This document shows positions 22,773-52,748 of a stretch of 64,000 nucleotides of DNA, in pieces. The position numbers were made by a program, and so were the translations under genes. The notes beneath the pieces were generated by a model. It worked only from the letters and a program-made list of their open reading frames with translations, was not told where the DNA came from and did not search any database. This DNA comes from Candidatus Micrarchaeia archaeon. GTDB taxonomy: Archaea > Micrarchaeota > Micrarchaeia > CAILAH01. Position 1 is the stretch's first letter; every line of letters begins with the position of its first letter. The stretch covers positions 152,715 to 216,714 of the forward strand of contig JAVZCB010000002.1 in NCBI GenBank assembly GCA_038874595.1, written 5' to 3'.

Positions 22773-22928
22773 TGCGGCTGCCGGGATTTTCACATGCACC
22801 CAGCACGTTATTGTATGGAGTGCCCTGCTTTGAACCCGGGTCTTAGCCTTTTTGAGAAGCACCGCATTTTTGGCGCTCAAAAAAGCGGCATGGCAAGGCC
22901 ATGTCCTACCAGGCTAGACTACAGCCGC
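22773..22928 (-). tRNA. tRNA-Gly(GCC) with introns at 37/38 (22850-22890) and 59/60 (22787-22828)
   Basis: Reverse complement reads GCGGCTG-TA-GTCTAGCCTGGTAGGAC-A-TGGCC-TT-GCC-A|intron|A-GGCTA-AGAC-CCGGG-TTCAAA|intron|T-CCCGG-CAGCCGC-A. Confidence 0.9.
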
Positions 22929-43443: not shown

Positions 43444-43487
43444 CTATTGAGGAAAACATTTTTATATATCTATTTCCCTATTTATCC

Positions 43488-44996
43488 ATGTCTTATTCCC
43501 ATAAGAAAGACACAGATGCGATAAAGAGAAAGTTAAGGCAAATGCGGGACAAGGCACAGAAAGACCTTGAAAGGCTAAAGGTTCCGCCCGATGTCATCTA
43601 CCATAATCAGCAGCTGTTTTATACGATTGCTGCAAGCCTGAACGGTATCACAAAAGCAGCACGTGCAGATATCAATCCCACGGACCTGCTCTGGCTCTCA
43701 TTATACCACGAAAACCTGAGCTATTCTGCATTGCCTTCCGAAATTAAGGAAACAATAGGCGGCTTGTTCAGGAGATTCATTGAGCTGAAGCACATTGATA
43801 TGTCAAAGAAAGAAGTTTGGACACCTTATAATAACCTTGTTGATGAATGCCCGGCATTGGCAGTTTTCCGTACAATAGACCTGGCGCACTTCCCGATGGA
43901 TTATAACACGCTTGTCAGGTCATTCTTATTTAAAAAAGATACTGTAGAGTATGCAGTACGCAATATTGCAGAGTCAATGCTTTATGTTTATGTGCCGTTT
44001 GCTGATATCTTGGGCATTCTTGATGTATACTCCTCCTTGCTTGATAAATCTACGAGCATACTTTATCCAGATCTTTATCGTGGGGTATATGCAAAACTAA
44101 AAGAGCTGCAGGATGAGAATGAGCACATTCTTAAAAACTTTGGCAACCGGCTCGAGTATGATATTTTGGAAGCTGAAATGGAAGACATCCATTTTGCGAA
44201 TTTTAGTGATAATTCATTAATAAAGGGCCGCATTAAAACAACCGGCTCTACAGTGCTTAAGCTAATCCGTAAGAACTACCCGATAGAAAAGATGATGGAG
44301 TTTGAAGACCTGGTGGCATTCACAGTACTGACAGAAACAGAACAGGATGCATACAAGTTTGTGGAATTCCTCAAAAACAAGTATAAGATACCGGAGGGCC
44401 ATTTTGATGATTATATAAGGTCACCGCGCGGCCAGACGCAATATCAATCCCTCCACCAAGGTGTCCCTTTTGAGGTTGAGCGGTTTGGTGAGAAGAAGAT
44501 AAGATTTATTGAGGTCCAGATACGCACTCCTGAAATGCAGGAAAAATGTGAGCGTGGTGACCAAGCACATGCACTTTTTAAGCAGAGAAAGATTGACAAG
44601 GAGAAGCTCCTGCTGATGTTACAGTATTCCACAACACTCAGGAATGCTTCTACGGAAGAGGTGCAGATGCTGGCTCTCAATTTGAGGTCTGAAAGGATAA
44701 CCGTGCTTGCAACGGTGACTCCAGATAGTGAGGTAATGATTGTTGACCTCCCGGAGAATTCTTGTGTGTATGACCTGATATGCAAGGTTTCAGACCCGTT
44801 CTATGAGCATAAGGTGGTTTCAGCTACAACCAACAGGATGTTTTCGCCATACGAATCTCTTATACCAGGGGCAGGGTACTTTATAATGAAGACCGGGGAA
44901 AGGATGCGGTCCTCAGAAATCAGAAGAATTATTCCGATATGCTCTCTTGAGACAAGAATGCAATTACAATGGATGCTTGAAAACAAAAAGAAGTAG
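43488..44996 (+). CDS. RelA/SpoT homologue: degenerate HD domain, alarmone synthetase domain, TGS-like domain
   Basis: IAE...VYVPFADILG, GRIK...S..KL, EDLVAF, FDDYI..P, YQSLH, EVQIRT.EM...ERG..AH; TGS-like TP....LP......D. Confidence 0.85.
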   Translation: MSYSHKKDTDAIKRKLRQMRDKAQKDLERLKVPPDVIYHNQQLFYTIAASLNGITKAARADINPTDLLWLSLYHENLSYSALPSEIKETIGGLFRRFIELKHIDMSKKEVWTPYNNLVDECPALAVFRTIDLAHFPMDYNTLVRSFLFKKDTVEYAVRNIAESMLYVYVPFADILGILDVYSSLLDKSTSILYPDLYRGVYAKLKELQDENEHILKNFGNRLEYDILEAEMEDIHFANFSDNSLIKGRIKTTGSTVLKLIRKNYPIEKMMEFEDLVAFTVLTETEQDAYKFVEFLKNKYKIPEGHFDDYIRSPRGQTQYQSLHQGVPFEVERFGEKKIRFIEVQIRTPEMQEKCERGDQAHALFKQRKIDKEKLLLMLQYSTTLRNASTEEVQMLALNLRSERITVLATVTPDSEVMIVDLPENSCVYDLICKVSDPFYEHKVVSATTNRMFSPYESLIPGAGYFIMKTGERMRSSEIRRIIPICSLETRMQLQWMLENKKK

Positions 44997-48411: not shown

Positions 48412-49905
48412 TTATGCTATATTTTCAAGCTCTTTTTTAAGTAATTCAACAAGCTCCCTTGCCTTACCCTCACTTTTAGCCTCACCAAAAATCCGTATAT
48501 AATTTTCTGTCCCGCTTGCCCGTGCTATGCACCACCCATCATCAAAATCAAGCCTTACACCATCAATTACAGTTGCATTTTTCATATTTTTTAGCTTCTC
48601 TTGCAGTTTCTTGATTTTCAAAAACCTTTCCTCACCCATCTCAATCTTGGTTTTTACATTTACAAACTTTGGCAGTGCATCCACAACTTCACTCAGCTTC
48701 TTTTTGCTTTTAACGAGCATCCCAGCAATTTTAAGGCTGCTCAGGATTGCATCCTTTCCAGGATGTACTCTTGGCCAGATGATACCACCAACCTCTTCAC
48801 CACCAGTTGCATAGCGGCAAGCCCCTGTTTCTGCTTTTAGTATGCCCTTCTCTGTCTTTATATATCCTTCCATCTCCTCTGCGATATATGGTGCGCCCAC
48901 TTTAACATATTTTACATGTGCACCGTGCCGTGCAGCAACCTCTTTTATGATATTGCTTGTTGCAACAGTTGTTACGACATCTTTTATTTGGTTGTTGGAT
49001 TGCTCGCCACATACCTCTCTTTCCTCTTTCAATTCATTATATATTATATCAACCGCAATTGCAAACACTTTATCCCCAAGCACATAATTTCCCTTCTCAT
49101 CAACAAGTGCAAGCCTGTCACCATCTCCGTCGTAAGCAATCCCTAAATCCGCCCCGACCGCCTTAACGGTCTTGATTAGCTCCTGCACATTCTGCTCTGT
49201 CGGTTCAGAATTTCTTCCCGGGAAGAACCCATCCTCCTGTGCATTGAGTGTAATAACCTTTGCACCGAGCTCCTTGAATAGCGCAGGCGCAACCCTGCCC
49301 GTAGTCCCGTTACCGCAATCAATAACAACTTTCAGGCCGTTAAGTTGATTTTGCCTTTCATGCCCCTGCTTGCCGTCACCCGCCATCCTTGCACTGTTCA
49401 CCGTCTCCAGGCACCCTCTTCTCAACACATCCATATATTCGCCCAGTGCACCACAGTCTTTTAGAACGGGGGGTATCCTATCCCATCTTGTCCTGTACCA
49501 CTTCTCATCAATCAGTATCTTCTCAACCTCTTCCCCCCGCTCTTTTGAAAGTGCCACGCCATTTTCATCATTGAACTTGAGCGCTACCCATTCGGGAGGA
49601 TTGTGCGATGAAGTGATAATTATTGAGGGGGTACCCCTCTTTTTGCTTAAGAACTCAACAGCAGGGGATGGCATTACACCAAGCAAAACCGGCTGTGCGC
49701 CTGCCCACAAAAGCCCACTTACAACAGCGCCTTCAACCAACTCGCCGGTTGTTCTTGTGTCTTTTGCAACCAGCACCTGCAAATACCCTTCCTTTCTATT
49801 TTTATTGGCCCAAGTTGCAAAAGATGCACATAACTTTGCGATAAAATCAGGTGTAATATTATCAAGTGTCCCGCGAACACCATTCGTCCCAAAATAGCTT
49901 ACCAT
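48412..49905 (-). CDS. Phosphohexomutase (PGM/PMM/GlmM family)
   Basis: FGTNGVRG, DTR, TSSHNP, DCGNG, DGDGDR, GGEEVG, DGVR, RASGTE. Confidence 0.92.
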   Translation of the reverse strand: MVSYFGTNGVRGTLDNITPDFIAKLCASFATWANKNRKEGYLQVLVAKDTRTTGELVEGAVVSGLLWAGAQPVLLGVMPSPAVEFLSKKRGTPSIIITSSHNPPEWVALKFNDENGVALSKERGEEVEKILIDEKWYRTRWDRIPPVLKDCGALGEYMDVLRRGCLETVNSARMAGDGKQGHERQNQLNGLKVVIDCGNGTTGRVAPALFKELGAKVITLNAQEDGFFPGRNSEPTEQNVQELIKTVKAVGADLGIAYDGDGDRLALVDEKGNYVLGDKVFAIAVDIIYNELKEEREVCGEQSNNQIKDVVTTVATSNIIKEVAARHGAHVKYVKVGAPYIAEEMEGYIKTEKGILKAETGACRYATGGEEVGGIIWPRVHPGKDAILSSLKIAGMLVKSKKKLSEVVDALPKFVNVKTKIEMGEERFLKIKKLQEKLKNMKNATVIDGVRLDFDDGWCIARASGTENYIRIFGEAKSEGKARELVELLKKELENIA

Positions 49906-49962
49906 ACAATACACGCCGCATTATGTGGCTGGCCATAATATATAATTGGCATTAGGATTTTA

Positions 49963-50115
49963 TTATGGCCCTTCAAAACCGCACTTTTTGCACACATATC
50001 TTACCATATTGCTCTTGCACTGGTTGCATCTGATTATTTTCTCTCCGCATTTTGGGCACTTAATCTCTGTGTAATCCGTGGTGCGTGTGCCGCACGAATC
50101 GCATGTCCGTATCAT
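49963..50115 (-). CDS. Small Zn-ribbon protein (DUF1610/HVO_2753-like), absent from the ORF track
   Basis: Manual translation MIRTCDSCGTRTTDYTEIKCPKCGEKIIRCNQCKSNMVRYVCKKCGFEGP: four CxxC motifs and the conserved CGFEGP end. Confidence 0.9.
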   Translation of the reverse strand: MIRTCDSCGTRTTDYTEIKCPKCGEKIIRCNQCKSNMVRYVCKKCGFEGP

Positions 50116-50169
50116 GGTAGTGTTTAGGCCGAATAACAATTAAAAACCTATTGAATATAAAGGACCTCT

Positions 50170-51453
50170 ATGGAATACTCTTTCAGGGGCAAGTATGGCC
50201 CCGAGCTGGTGCGGCGTGTTGCAGATACAATACACAAAATTGGCTTTCAGGGTGTTGTGGTAATTGCAAGGGATTCAAGGCCTTCAAGCCACGCCCTGGC
50301 ATCCTTAATAGTGTCGGGACTGCTCCAGAATGGTAATATAGTCCACGACATTGGGGTTGTACCTACACCTGTACTTTCATACTACTCAAAACAGCACAGT
50401 TGCCTTGGTGTTATGGTAACAGCCTCACATAATCCGGAAGATGATAATGGCATAAAGATGTTTTTCAATGGCAGTGAAGCATCAAACATCCAGCCTAATC
50501 ATTCAATTAATCCATCATCAAAGATAATCGTGGCAGATGCGGCAGCCGGTTATATTCCAGCTGTTCTCAAATATATTGATACATCAGCGATACAGCGTGT
50601 ACGGCCTAAGGTAGTGGTTGACTGTGGCAACGGCACAGCTGGCGCATTTACACCTCTTATTCTCCGCGCAGCAGGTGCAAGGGTCATAACAGTTGATGCA
50701 GAGATATCCCACCCGTTCTCCCGCAGCCCTGAGCCGGAGTATGATACACTGGCATACCTGCCTGCAATCGTAAGGGAAATGGGTGCGGCGTTTGCGGTTG
50801 CGCACGATGCAGATGCTGATAGGTGTCGCATAGTTACCGCTGATGGAGTTATGCCGCAGGACATCCAGCTGCTCAACATCGCATCAGCCATATGCAAAAA
50901 AGGGGATTTGTTTGTTACCACAGTTGAGGCATCGCAGGCAGTTCTCGATCAGCTTGCAAAAATAGGTATCCGCACAGAGATAACGCCAGTAGGCAGCAAC
51001 CACGTGGCGCGTGCAGCTGCGCGGTATGGTGCAAAATTTGGGGGAGAGCCGTGCGGCGAGTATGTATTCCCGGATTTCCTGCTCTCAGCGGATGGCGTTC
51101 TTTCAGCGCTCGTTTTAACAAAGATATACTGTGAGCTAAAAGGGTTTACAGCGTATAATCAATATCCAATAATACGTGGCAAAATTGCTGTAAGCCCCAA
51201 CATACCAAAATATAAAATAATTGAGAAGGTGAAGGGCGCATTAAGGCAGGTGCCTTCCATAAATATTGTTAGCGAGCAGGATGGCATTCTCTTTAATTAT
51301 GGGGGTGCGCGTGTGCTTGTGAGATGCAGCAACACGCAGGACATAATACGCATCACGTGCGAGCATGCAGATGAAAATAGGGCAAGACAAGCATACGATT
51401 GGATAAAAAAGGTTATTGTTGAAACAACACATAATGGATATGCAATAGAATAA
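50170..51453 (+). CDS. Phosphohexomutase, probable phosphoglucosamine mutase (adjacent to glmU)
   Basis: DSR, TASHNP, DCGNG, DADADR, GGEPCG, RCSNT. Confidence 0.88.
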   Translation: MEYSFRGKYGPELVRRVADTIHKIGFQGVVVIARDSRPSSHALASLIVSGLLQNGNIVHDIGVVPTPVLSYYSKQHSCLGVMVTASHNPEDDNGIKMFFNGSEASNIQPNHSINPSSKIIVADAAAGYIPAVLKYIDTSAIQRVRPKVVVDCGNGTAGAFTPLILRAAGARVITVDAEISHPFSRSPEPEYDTLAYLPAIVREMGAAFAVAHDADADRCRIVTADGVMPQDIQLLNIASAICKKGDLFVTTVEASQAVLDQLAKIGIRTEITPVGSNHVARAAARYGAKFGGEPCGEYVFPDFLLSADGVLSALVLTKIYCELKGFTAYNQYPIIRGKIAVSPNIPKYKIIEKVKGALRQVPSINIVSEQDGILFNYGGARVLVRCSNTQDIIRITCEHADENRARQAYDWIKKVIVETTHNGYAIE

Positions 51454-51479
51454 GCACAATCAACGTACAGGTGTGTTAT

Positions 51480-52748
51480 ATGAAAGGAGTAATACTTGCA
51501 GCGGGAAATAGCACACGATTGCATCCCGTAACTGAGGACATATCTAAATGCATGCTCCCTGTTGGTGGCAGGGCGATAATTGAATATTCACTCGCACATA
51601 TGGAAGCGCTTGGCATCACCGAGATAGGGATAGTTGTTGGGAGCACGCACGCAAATAAAATAAGGGAGTGTTTCGGCAGCTCTTTTGGCAAAGCAAAGCT
51701 GACTTATATTGAGCAGGACAGCAAAACGCGCGGCTCGGCAGCGGCAGTGCTCTCCGCAGTGCCTTTTATAGGCAATGATGATGCGCTTGTTATAGCAGGG
51801 GATATTCTTGCAGAGTTCCAGGATATCAAGGAGGTTGTTGATTTTTATAAGAGGCATAAAGTAGATGCGGTAATGCTCCTTGCAACGGTTGCAGACCCGA
51901 AGAGGTATGGGGTTGTTGAACTGCGCGAGAAGAAAGTTGTTGATATCATAGAGAAGCCAGCACAGCCTAAGAGCAACCTTGCAAATGCGAGTGTGTATGT
52001 TGTTGGCAGGAGATTTATTGAGGAGATAAAGCATGTCCAGCCAAGCCCTCGCGGCGAGCTGGAAATAACAAGCGCGCTTTATGAGCTATGCAACGATGGC
52101 CTTCTTTACGGCATTACTGCAAAGGGGTACTGGAATGATGTTGGCACACCGTGGGACCTGCTTTCTGCAAACGAGCACTTTATGGGGATGGTTAAGAGGA
52201 GCATAAAAGGCACGGTTAAAGACAGCACAATAATAGGTGATGTTGTTATTGAGGAAGGTGCAGAGGTGCTCAATTCATACATTGAGGGCCCATGCTATAT
52301 CTCAAAAGGCGCGGTTATAGGGCCGTTTGCGCATATACGCAAATACACATATATAGGTCCCGGTGTTGAGGTAGGCGGCTTTTCAATAGTAAAGAACTCA
52401 ATAATCCTTGATGGCACCAAAGCGAAGCATCTTTCGTATATAGGTGACAGCATAATCGGCCATAACTGCAACTTTGGTGCATCAACACAGGTTGCAAACT
52501 TGCGTTTTGATAGGAAAACCATACGTATGGCAGTTAATGGCAATGAATATGATACCGGCAGGGTCAAGATGGGGTGTGTTGTAGGGCCGGATGTGAACTT
52601 TGGCGTGAACTGCGTTATTCTCCCGGGCAAGAAGGTTGGTGGCGGCTCAATCATCGGTCCGGGCGCTATTGTTGCAGAAGATGTGCCGCCAAACACGCGC
52701 GTGGTTGTAAGGCAAAATTTAGAGCATACCCAAATAACTAAGGAATAA
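51480..52748 (+). CDS. glmU: Bifunctional sugar-1-phosphate nucleotidylyltransferase/acetyltransferase (archaeal GlmU)
   Basis: LAAG.STRL.P.T, EKP, RGELE.T, W.DVG.PWDLL, hexapeptide repeats, HLSYIGDS, ANLRFD. Confidence 0.9.
   Translation: MKGVILAAGNSTRLHPVTEDISKCMLPVGGRAIIEYSLAHMEALGITEIGIVVGSTHANKIRECFGSSFGKAKLTYIEQDSKTRGSAAAVLSAVPFIGNDDALVIAGDILAEFQDIKEVVDFYKRHKVDAVMLLATVADPKRYGVVELREKKVVDIIEKPAQPKSNLANASVYVVGRRFIEEIKHVQPSPRGELEITSALYELCNDGLLYGITAKGYWNDVGTPWDLLSANEHFMGMVKRSIKGTVKDSTIIGDVVIEEGAEVLNSYIEGPCYISKGAVIGPFAHIRKYTYIGPGVEVGGFSIVKNSIILDGTKAKHLSYIGDSIIGHNCNFGASTQVANLRFDRKTIRMAVNGNEYDTGRVKMGCVVGPDVNFGVNCVILPGKKVGGGSIIGPGAIVAEDVPPNTRVVVRQNLEHTQITKE

Follow-up and report, generated by a model that had tools for sequence, protein, structure and literature searches.

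The 64,000-nucleotide stretch of a contig from a Candidatus Micrarchaeia archaeon that was analyzed here (JAVZCB010000002.1; the whole stretch is referred to as the window) contained a complete gene for a truncated and divergent long RelA/SpoT homolog (RSH), designated P0001. The protein probably belongs to a small, Micrarchaeia-specific clade of shortened long RSHs that would combine an active Mg2+-dependent pyrophosphokinase with a pseudo-hydrolase domain and be free of the ribosome/tRNA control of bacteria. P0001 would take the β,γ-pyrophosphate from ATP and attach it to the 3'-OH of an acceptor nucleotide, most likely GDP or GTP, and (p)ppGpp would then be the product.

Sequence Identity and Domain Architecture

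The open reading frame (ORF) of P0001 begins at the first start codon following a stop. The Pfam RelA_SpoT profile (PF04607) matched residues 247-367 with an E-value of 3.8e-20 (72.7 bits, cut-off 27), and the NCBIfam profile TIGR00691 (spoT_relA) aligned to the protein over profile positions 131-402 (E 4.9e-33). A sequence search of the Protein Data Bank with P0001 returned Rel and RelA chains at an E-value of 1e-12, and a profile built from four family members brought this to 3.5e-20. Judged from these scores, the similarity of P0001 to RelA/SpoT proteins is far beyond chance. Neither HD_4 nor TGS was matched in the Pfam scan of the protein.

An AlphaFold2 model of P0001, for which 79 aligned sequences from the family and from long RSHs served as input, was confident (predicted local distance difference test score of 91.7, predicted template modeling score of 0.89). 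The best Foldseek matches to this model were all long RSHs aligned over the whole chain, led by Bacillus subtilis Rel (6yxa; E 4.7e-15, approximately 520 columns) and followed by ribosome-bound RelA and SpoT. In VIA-align superpositions, residues 5-418 of the model were aligned with residues 18-388 of 6yxa at a Z-score of 25.7 and a root-mean-square deviation (rmsd) of 3.4 Å over 337 residues, and residues 402-502 were aligned with residues 392-486 of ribosome-bound Rel (6htq; Z 11.4, rmsd 2.2 Å). The TGS-like domain also superposed on an isolated TGS domain (3hvz; Z 7.7, rmsd 1.6 Å). Small alarmone synthetases (SAS) gave Z-scores of 13-17, with RelQ at 17.0, and CapRel, Tas1, and FaRel2 gave 10.8, 9.2, and 8.4, respectively. 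According to the model, P0001 is composed of a pseudo-HD domain, a synthetase (SYNTH) domain, a TGS-like domain, and two helices at which the chain ends, which is the usual order of long RSHs; the TGS assignment holds at the level of the fold only.

The two terminal helices correspond to the first post-TGS helices of long RSHs (the T-x-x-A-R motif region). The C-terminal AH/RIS (ZFD) and ACT/RRM domains were absent, and the chain stops at residue 502 after only these two helices. The possibility that these domains had been split off to other genes was rejected: the RelA_AH_RIS profile (PF19296) had zero matches in the host genome, and ACT_4 was matched only by generic short ORFs (131 and 160 aa), of which the single one above the cut-off lies on the same contig approximately 137 kb from the P0001 gene. 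In the 79-sequence alignment, the TGS histidine that is conserved in 52 of the 63 long RSHs was replaced by Ser435, and the conserved glycine of canonical TGS domains was also missing. A preliminary description of the gene, made from the sequence alone, had proposed a protein colinear with bacterial long RSHs, without ZFD or RRM and without the TGS histidine that contacts tRNA CCA. The HD-SYNTH-TGS order is borne out by the superposition, the early end of the chain and the empty RelA_AH_RIS search agree with the second point, and Ser435 occupies the histidine column. All of the motifs listed in that description were likewise found in the translation, namely LYHE at residues 72-75 (L-H-D in long RSHs), VYVPFADILG at 167-176, GRIK..S at 247-254, EDL at 273-275 with Thr279 at the arginine position of long RSHs, HFDD at 305-308, YQSLH at 319-323, and EVQIRT at 342-347.

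Conservation of the Synthetase Site

Residues were compared between 14 orthologs of the P0001 family, which are 28-50% identical, and the 63 long RSHs. Arg248, Lys250, Lys258, Asp274, Tyr319, His323, Glu342, Gln344, His361, and Lys365 were invariant across the orthologs, and Ser254 was serine in 12 members and alanine in the remaining two, in a domain whose mean identity within the family was 39%. In SaRelP, Arg78, Lys80, Lys88, Asp107, Tyr151, Glu174, and His190 are responsible for adenine stacking, phosphate and Mg2+ binding, acceptor stacking, and ribose binding (PMC5794853), and the invariant residues of the P0001 family correspond to them by spacing. On these alignments the synthetase site of P0001 looks intact, with the ATP-phosphate, Mg2+, acceptor-base, and catalytic positions kept, which is how it had been read previously. 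Furthermore, because other Micrarchaeia lineages (L031 and L034, see below) have lost the SYNTH motifs, their retention in the P0001 family implies selection.

The position of the RxKD/ExDD motif reads xxDD in the family. Asp was the last residue in all 14 members, and the third was acidic (Asp or Glu) in 13 and Ser in the remaining member; the first varied (H, N, K, F, and others) and was never the conserved Glu. P0001 shares the acidic DD with the EFDD of Escherichia coli RelA, the monofunctional enzyme that HFDD had been said to resemble, and differs from it in the first residue.

The Pseudo-Hydrolase Domain

His39, His74, and Asp131 were invariant in the family and aligned with three of the four residues that bind Mn2+ in Rel. 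In P0001, the Asp of the HD doublet is replaced by Glu75, and several orthologs lack this residue as well, with a doublet that reads H-E or H alone across the family. All members lacked the ED diad as well as Arg and Asn in the DRLHN motif, and the HD_4 profile had no match in P0001 or in the host genome, even at an E-value of 1. The domain was conserved as strongly as SYNTH (mean identity of 0.38 vs. 0.39). These features suggest that (p)ppGpp hydrolysis has probably been lost and that the domain, to judge from its conservation, retains a metal site or another role. The earlier view of a degenerate hydrolase is consistent with the absent ED diad, the LYHE doublet, and the lack of an HD_4 match. 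The accompanying label of a synthetase-only enzyme is supported by the degenerate catalytic set, but it can be retained as probable only, because a domain with three of four Mn2+-ligand positions invariant is not simply dead.

Proposed Mode of Action

In the favored reading, the N-terminal domain, which lacks the ED diad and most of the substrate-binding residues, would serve the SYNTH domain as a structural or allosteric partner, as in RelA. Activation of the bacterial type by the ribosome and tRNA is unlikely because AH/RIS, ACT/RRM, and the TGS histidine that reads tRNA CCA are missing; the TGS-like tail would more likely be an autoinhibitory or sensing module. The product may be removed by non-homologous enzymes or by dilution. 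Profile searches of the host genome for Ppx/GppA and HD_4, which followed up the proposal that a hydrolase partner might be encoded elsewhere, found no match. The genome contained five Nudix and six generic HD proteins, none of them adjacent or linked to P0001, and one of these could be such a non-homologous enzyme.

Distribution and Residence in Micrarchaeia

The host genome (0.92 Mb in 7 contigs, 93.5% complete, 0.05% contamination) belongs to Micrarchaeia within DPANN, and P0001 was its sole RelA_SpoT match. Among 201 sampled Micrarchaeia genomes, 25 contained an RSH-like gene. An ortholog of P0001 was present in all eight of the other sampled genomes of the host family, in one copy each and at 30-66% identity. 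In a second family (f4), eight of nine genomes harbored a canonical long RSH of approximately 650 aa with HD_4, RelA_SpoT, TGS, and ACT domains, and scattered members of four further families contained divergent RSH forms of 455-610 aa. An f4 genome (G045) encoded a canonical-type long RSH of 905 aa (L028:1353-4070:+) that carries an N-terminal extension of approximately 260 aa before the HD domain.

The gene order eS26, metallophosphoesterase (Metallophos, divergent), RSH, and AAA ATPase (convergent) was kept in four independent assemblies with 33-49% identity. The GC content of the P0001 gene was 0.425, compared with 0.436 for the window, and the contig also carries an archaeal ATP-dependent DNA ligase gene, an eS26 gene, and a presumably intron-bearing tRNA. 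A TATA-like box, TTTTATATA, was located within the 44-bp divergent intergenic region approximately 20 nt 5' of the P0001 ATG, a placement consistent with an archaeal promoter whose transcript has a short leader or none. Because of the family-wide presence, the kept synteny, the matching GC content, and the upstream TATA-like box, the gene is judged to be native, chromosomally resident, and vertically inherited, and by the same genomic evidence a recent import is excluded. The long residence that had been suggested for it on the basis of its neighbors is in line with its presence in eight of eight sampled family genomes and with the conserved synteny.

When 1.84 billion representative proteins were searched exhaustively with a profile, only 10 had E < 1e-30, all of them approximately 490-510 aa in length or fragments. 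The next-best match was an Asgard "hypothetical protein" (P0131), followed by ordinary long RSHs. The divergence is such that the annotated relatives of P0001 that were looked up were labeled "hypothetical protein" only, and its close family members had no name.

Phylogenetic Placement

RSH trees were inferred under a site-heterogeneous model, and the approximately unbiased (AU) test was applied to a 34-row set. The P0001 family grouped with long-branch archaeal forms, namely family f15 (with P0196), Asgard P0131, and P0157. This group fell outside the well-supported clade of canonical long RSHs, which holds the f4 proteins and HD-SYNTH-TGS forms of approximately 485 aa, one of them named as Patescibacteria. 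An exclusive clade of the P0001 family (f1) and f4 was rejected by the AU test (p-AU 7e-07), with the caveats that long branches are involved and that the group to be tested was chosen with the tree already in view. A recent split of the P0001 family from the long RSH of its sister family f4 was rejected on this test, under the same long-branch caveat. Because of the risk of long-branch attraction and the post hoc group, the P0001 family is claimed only not to be a recent offshoot of f4.

The Asgard protein P0131 (NCBI MHA1859554.1, Candidatus Asgardarchaeia archaeon, 471 aa), annotated as hypothetical, is a divergent truncated RSH. It has features of the P0001 family, including Thr at the arginine position and GEWAH, and it clusters with the Micrarchaeia forms in the trees. 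Two further Micrarchaeia proteins, L031:1728-3359:- and L034:2078-3829:- (families f15 and f2, respectively), match the HD-to-TGS profile and have lost the SYNTH motifs (no YxxxH, no ExQ); from their sequences, these RSH-like proteins on very long branches are apparent pseudoenzymes.

Comparison With Known RSH Proteins

The bifunctional long RSH Rel (B. subtilis Rel, 6yxa/6htq; RelSeq, 1vj7), which is the best structural match of P0001, shares with it the HD-SYNTH-TGS order and the SYNTH motifs (GRxK..S, the Mg-site Asp, YQSLH, and EVQIRT). On the other hand, the two are only approximately 20% identical. The HD/ED motifs of P0001 are degenerate, its adenine-stacking Arg is replaced by Thr, its RxKD position reads xxDD, and the TGS His, AH/RIS (ZFD), and ACT/RRM are missing. 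The monofunctional E. coli RelA (an [hS] long RSH; 5iqr, 5kpv) similarly combines a pseudo-hydrolase N-terminal domain with an active-looking SYNTH domain. In contrast to P0001, E. coli RelA has the TGS His and a complete C-terminal region for ribosome binding, and relatives of RelA lose the His residues of the HD domain that the P0001 family keeps invariant.

Short HD-SYNTH-TGS proteins of approximately 485 aa (P0030, named as Patescibacteria; the others metagenomic) have a truncated three-domain architecture and a length like that of P0001. Unlike the P0001 family, these proteins have HD_4 and TGS Pfam matches and LLHD..ED motifs, and are nested within the canonical long RSHs. The f4 long RSHs (e.g., L014:787-2736:-) occur in the same host class and have an xLDD motif, whereas they possess HD_4, RelA_SpoT, TGS, and ACT domains and an intact HD motif, and branch among canonical long RSHs.

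Toxic SAS (toxSAS) proteins such as CapRel, FaRel2, and Tas1 have the SYNTH fold in common with P0001, and both deviate from the canonical substrate-binding residues. However, toxSAS are structurally more distant from P0001 than Rel (Z 8.4-10.8). They consist of a single domain or come with an antitoxin of their own, as a domain or as a gene, and their distribution is patchy, whereas P0001 has three domains, is fixed in its family, and is flanked by core genes. A toxSAS module consists of a small SAS of one domain that forms a conserved bicistron with its antitoxin (Jimmy et al., bioRxiv 10.1101/575399). No such arrangement was found for P0001, in which the upstream gene is divergent, the downstream gene is convergent, and both are class-wide core genes. 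The idea of a toxSAS-like enzyme, which had been raised in the preliminary description, finds no backing in the gene context, given the lack of an antitoxin-like partner and a location that is not on a mobile element, and the fold is closer to Rel and RelQ.

Long RSHs were reported to be lacking in archaea in a survey of the superfamily (Atkinson et al., 2011; PMC3153485). Later, RelA/SpoT was found in 19-69% of Diapherotrites, Woesearchaeota, Pacearchaeota, and Nanoarchaeota genomes and considered to be of bacterial import (PMC8407392); Micrarchaeota are not among the DPANN phyla listed for RelA/SpoT in that work. The view that RSH genes are sporadic in archaea, on which the preliminary description drew, is dated for DPANN in light of these percentages and of the 25 out of 201 Micrarchaeia genomes found here. 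RelA/SpoT genes in DPANN are therefore already known, and P0001 is not a new kind of system.

Weighing of Alternative Explanations

Several observations weigh against an active (p)ppGpp synthetase without hydrolase activity. All NCBIfam scores of P0001 were far under the curated cut-offs (114.4 bits vs. 499.2 for TIGR00691). At the position of SaRelP Arg112 (D-x-x-A-x-R), the second Arg to stack on the adenine of ATP, 12 of the 14 family members had Thr (Thr279 in P0001) and the other two had Met, as compared with Arg in 57 of the 63 long RSHs; the replacement of the Arg past DLxA by Thr had been noticed before in P0001. The loss of this Arg in all members indicates that binding of the ATP donor may be altered or weakened. 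The preceding residue, Phe278, was invariant in the family, and might stand in for the lost adenine-stacking Arg. In the G-loop, most members had Arg for Lys, and 10 of 14 had Thr for Asn together with an insertion of one residue; on account of these changes the acceptor may not be guanine. The invariant His39, His74, and Asp131, together with a conservation at the level of SYNTH, leave a small probability of a residual or altered hydrolase activity. We know of no archaeal (p)ppGpp target. As of PMC8646023, there was also no archaeon in which (p)ppGpp had been detected.

An unusual substrate for P0001 is possible. It is somewhat unlikely, on our assessment, that the enzyme is active with another chemistry, e.g., synthesis of (p)ppApp, pyrophosphorylation of the tRNA 3'-end in the manner of CapRel and FaRel2, or the use of another donor or acceptor, as an archaeal-specific signaling or growth-control enzyme. 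Such a chemistry would be consistent with the family-wide Arg to Thr/Met change at the adenine-stacking position and the G-loop changes (Lys to Arg, Asn to Thr), with the long stem of a clade outside the canonical long RSHs, and with a host genome in which neither an RSH-type hydrolase nor Ppx/GppA was matched. However, the G-loop Tyr, YQSLH, and EVQIRT are canonical, 4 of 14 members keep the canonical G-loop Asn, and Rel and RelQ (Z 25.7 and 17) resemble P0001 in structure more closely than CapRel, Tas1, and FaRel2 do; the gene, moreover, is fixed in the host family rather than patchy, and lies between two class-wide core genes without a toxin-antitoxin-like bicistron. A related reading, that the P0001 family, f15, and the Asgard form represent an old archaeal RSH lineage with altered pockets (Arg/Asn to Thr), without ribosome/tRNA sensing, and with a product other than (p)ppGpp, is considered unlikely. 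The chance is smaller still that P0001 is a pseudoenzyme, i.e., a nucleotide-binding regulator or scaffold that has kept the RSH fold without catalysis. One ATP-contacting Arg is indeed lost, the hydrolase site is degenerate, and the loss of the SYNTH motifs in L031 and L034 indicates that decay occurs in the class. On the other hand, the Mg2+, phosphate, acceptor, and catalytic positions are kept in 14 orthologs at a mean SYNTH identity of 39%, and a scaffold would need neither the metal ligands Asp274 and Glu342 nor the G-loop Tyr.

We consider it very unlikely that P0001 is still bifunctional, with an N-terminal metal-dependent hydrolase of (p)ppGpp or a relative that uses an altered catalytic set. 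The ED diad is missing in all members, as are the Arg and Asn of DRLHN, several members have no acidic residue past His74, and HD_4 was not matched even at an E-value of 1. These losses outweigh, in our assessment, the invariance of His39, His74, and Asp131, the occurrence, in most members, of Glu75 at the position of the fourth ligand, the SYNTH-like conservation of the domain, and the fact that E. coli-type RelA relatives (row long_P0013) drop the His residues that the P0001 family retains. The closest characterized relatives of P0001 are bacterial, and it had been pointed out that bacterial contamination of the archaeal bin or misassembly would undo the case for an archaeal RSH. The likelihood of this is negligible and the explanation was rejected, since the archaeal genes that flank it (eS26, Metallophos, and the membrane AAA ATPase) are the same across four independent assemblies and eight sampled family genomes. 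In addition, the GC content of the gene is native, its 216-kb contig also encodes an archaeal DNA ligase and a tRNA that presumably contains an intron, and contamination of the genome is 0.05%.

Neighboring Genes

The features of the P0001 locus are given in Table 1. The divergent metallophosphoesterase P0002 weakly matched TIGR00024 and PdeM-like nuclease families. It had been put forward, as a speculation, as an off-switch for the RSH. This role was rejected because the metallophosphoesterase is a class-wide core gene present in 154 of the 201 genomes, as compared with 25 for RSH; it was adjacent to eS26 in all five of the other Micrarchaeia genomes examined, four of which were RSH-less, and in the f4 genome G009 it lies approximately 146 kb away from the RSH gene. 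The convergent membrane AAA ATPase contained a polytopic membrane N-terminal domain of approximately 340 aa and two AAA modules. Relatives of the membrane domain, usually in ORFs of approximately 900 aa, were found in 141 of the 201 genomes, with or without RSH, and this ATPase was likewise rejected as an RSH partner. Since both genes belong to the core of the class, their adjacency to the RSH gene in one family reflects synteny rather than a functional link.

Table 1. Features of the P0001 locus; positions are counted from the first letter of the window.
Feature	Position	Strand	Basis or remark
Ribosomal protein eS26, 83 aa	42460-42711	-	Pfam 32 bits vs. cut-off 27; downstream of metallophosphoesterase
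Metallophosphoesterase P0002	42718-43443	-	Upstream of P0001, divergently transcribed
TATA-like box TTTTATATA	43460..43468	+	Read from sequence; putative function
P0001, truncated, divergent long RelA/SpoT homolog, complete gene	43488..44996	+	502 aa; ORF, profile, and structure evidence
Pseudo-hydrolase (HD-fold) domain, aa 1-200	43488..44087	+	Superposes on Rel HD domain; no Pfam HD_4
Synthetase (SYNTH) domain, aa 201-370	44088..44597	+	Pfam PF04607 over 247-367, alignments
TGS-like beta-grasp domain, aa 401-472	44688..44903	+	Structure match; no Pfam TGS
Two C-terminal helices, aa 473-502	44904..44993	+	Alignment and model
Membrane AAA ATPase, 897 aa	45032-47725	-	Convergent; 35 bp downstream of P0001 gene

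Elsewhere in the window, an Rfam tRNA match spanned 156 nt (22773-22928, minus strand) and is presumably interrupted by an intron. Two phosphoglucomutase/phosphomannomutase paralogs were located beside a GlmU-like sugar-nucleotidyltransferase with hexapeptide repeats (48412-52748), an arrangement that recurs on the contigs of relatives.

Implications for Micrarchaeia

If an old archaeal RSH lineage with a different product did exist, it would represent nucleotide-pyrophosphate signaling that is distinct from the bacterial stringent response. Despite deep divergence, a whole Micrarchaeia family has preserved a pared-down RSH in which the synthetase site is intact and neither a hydrolase nor ribosome-binding domains can be recognized. 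P0001, if active, would be a compact test case for the control of alarmone synthesis without ribosome-sensing domains, and would bear on the question of whether genome-reduced symbiotic archaea use pyrophosphorylated nucleotides.

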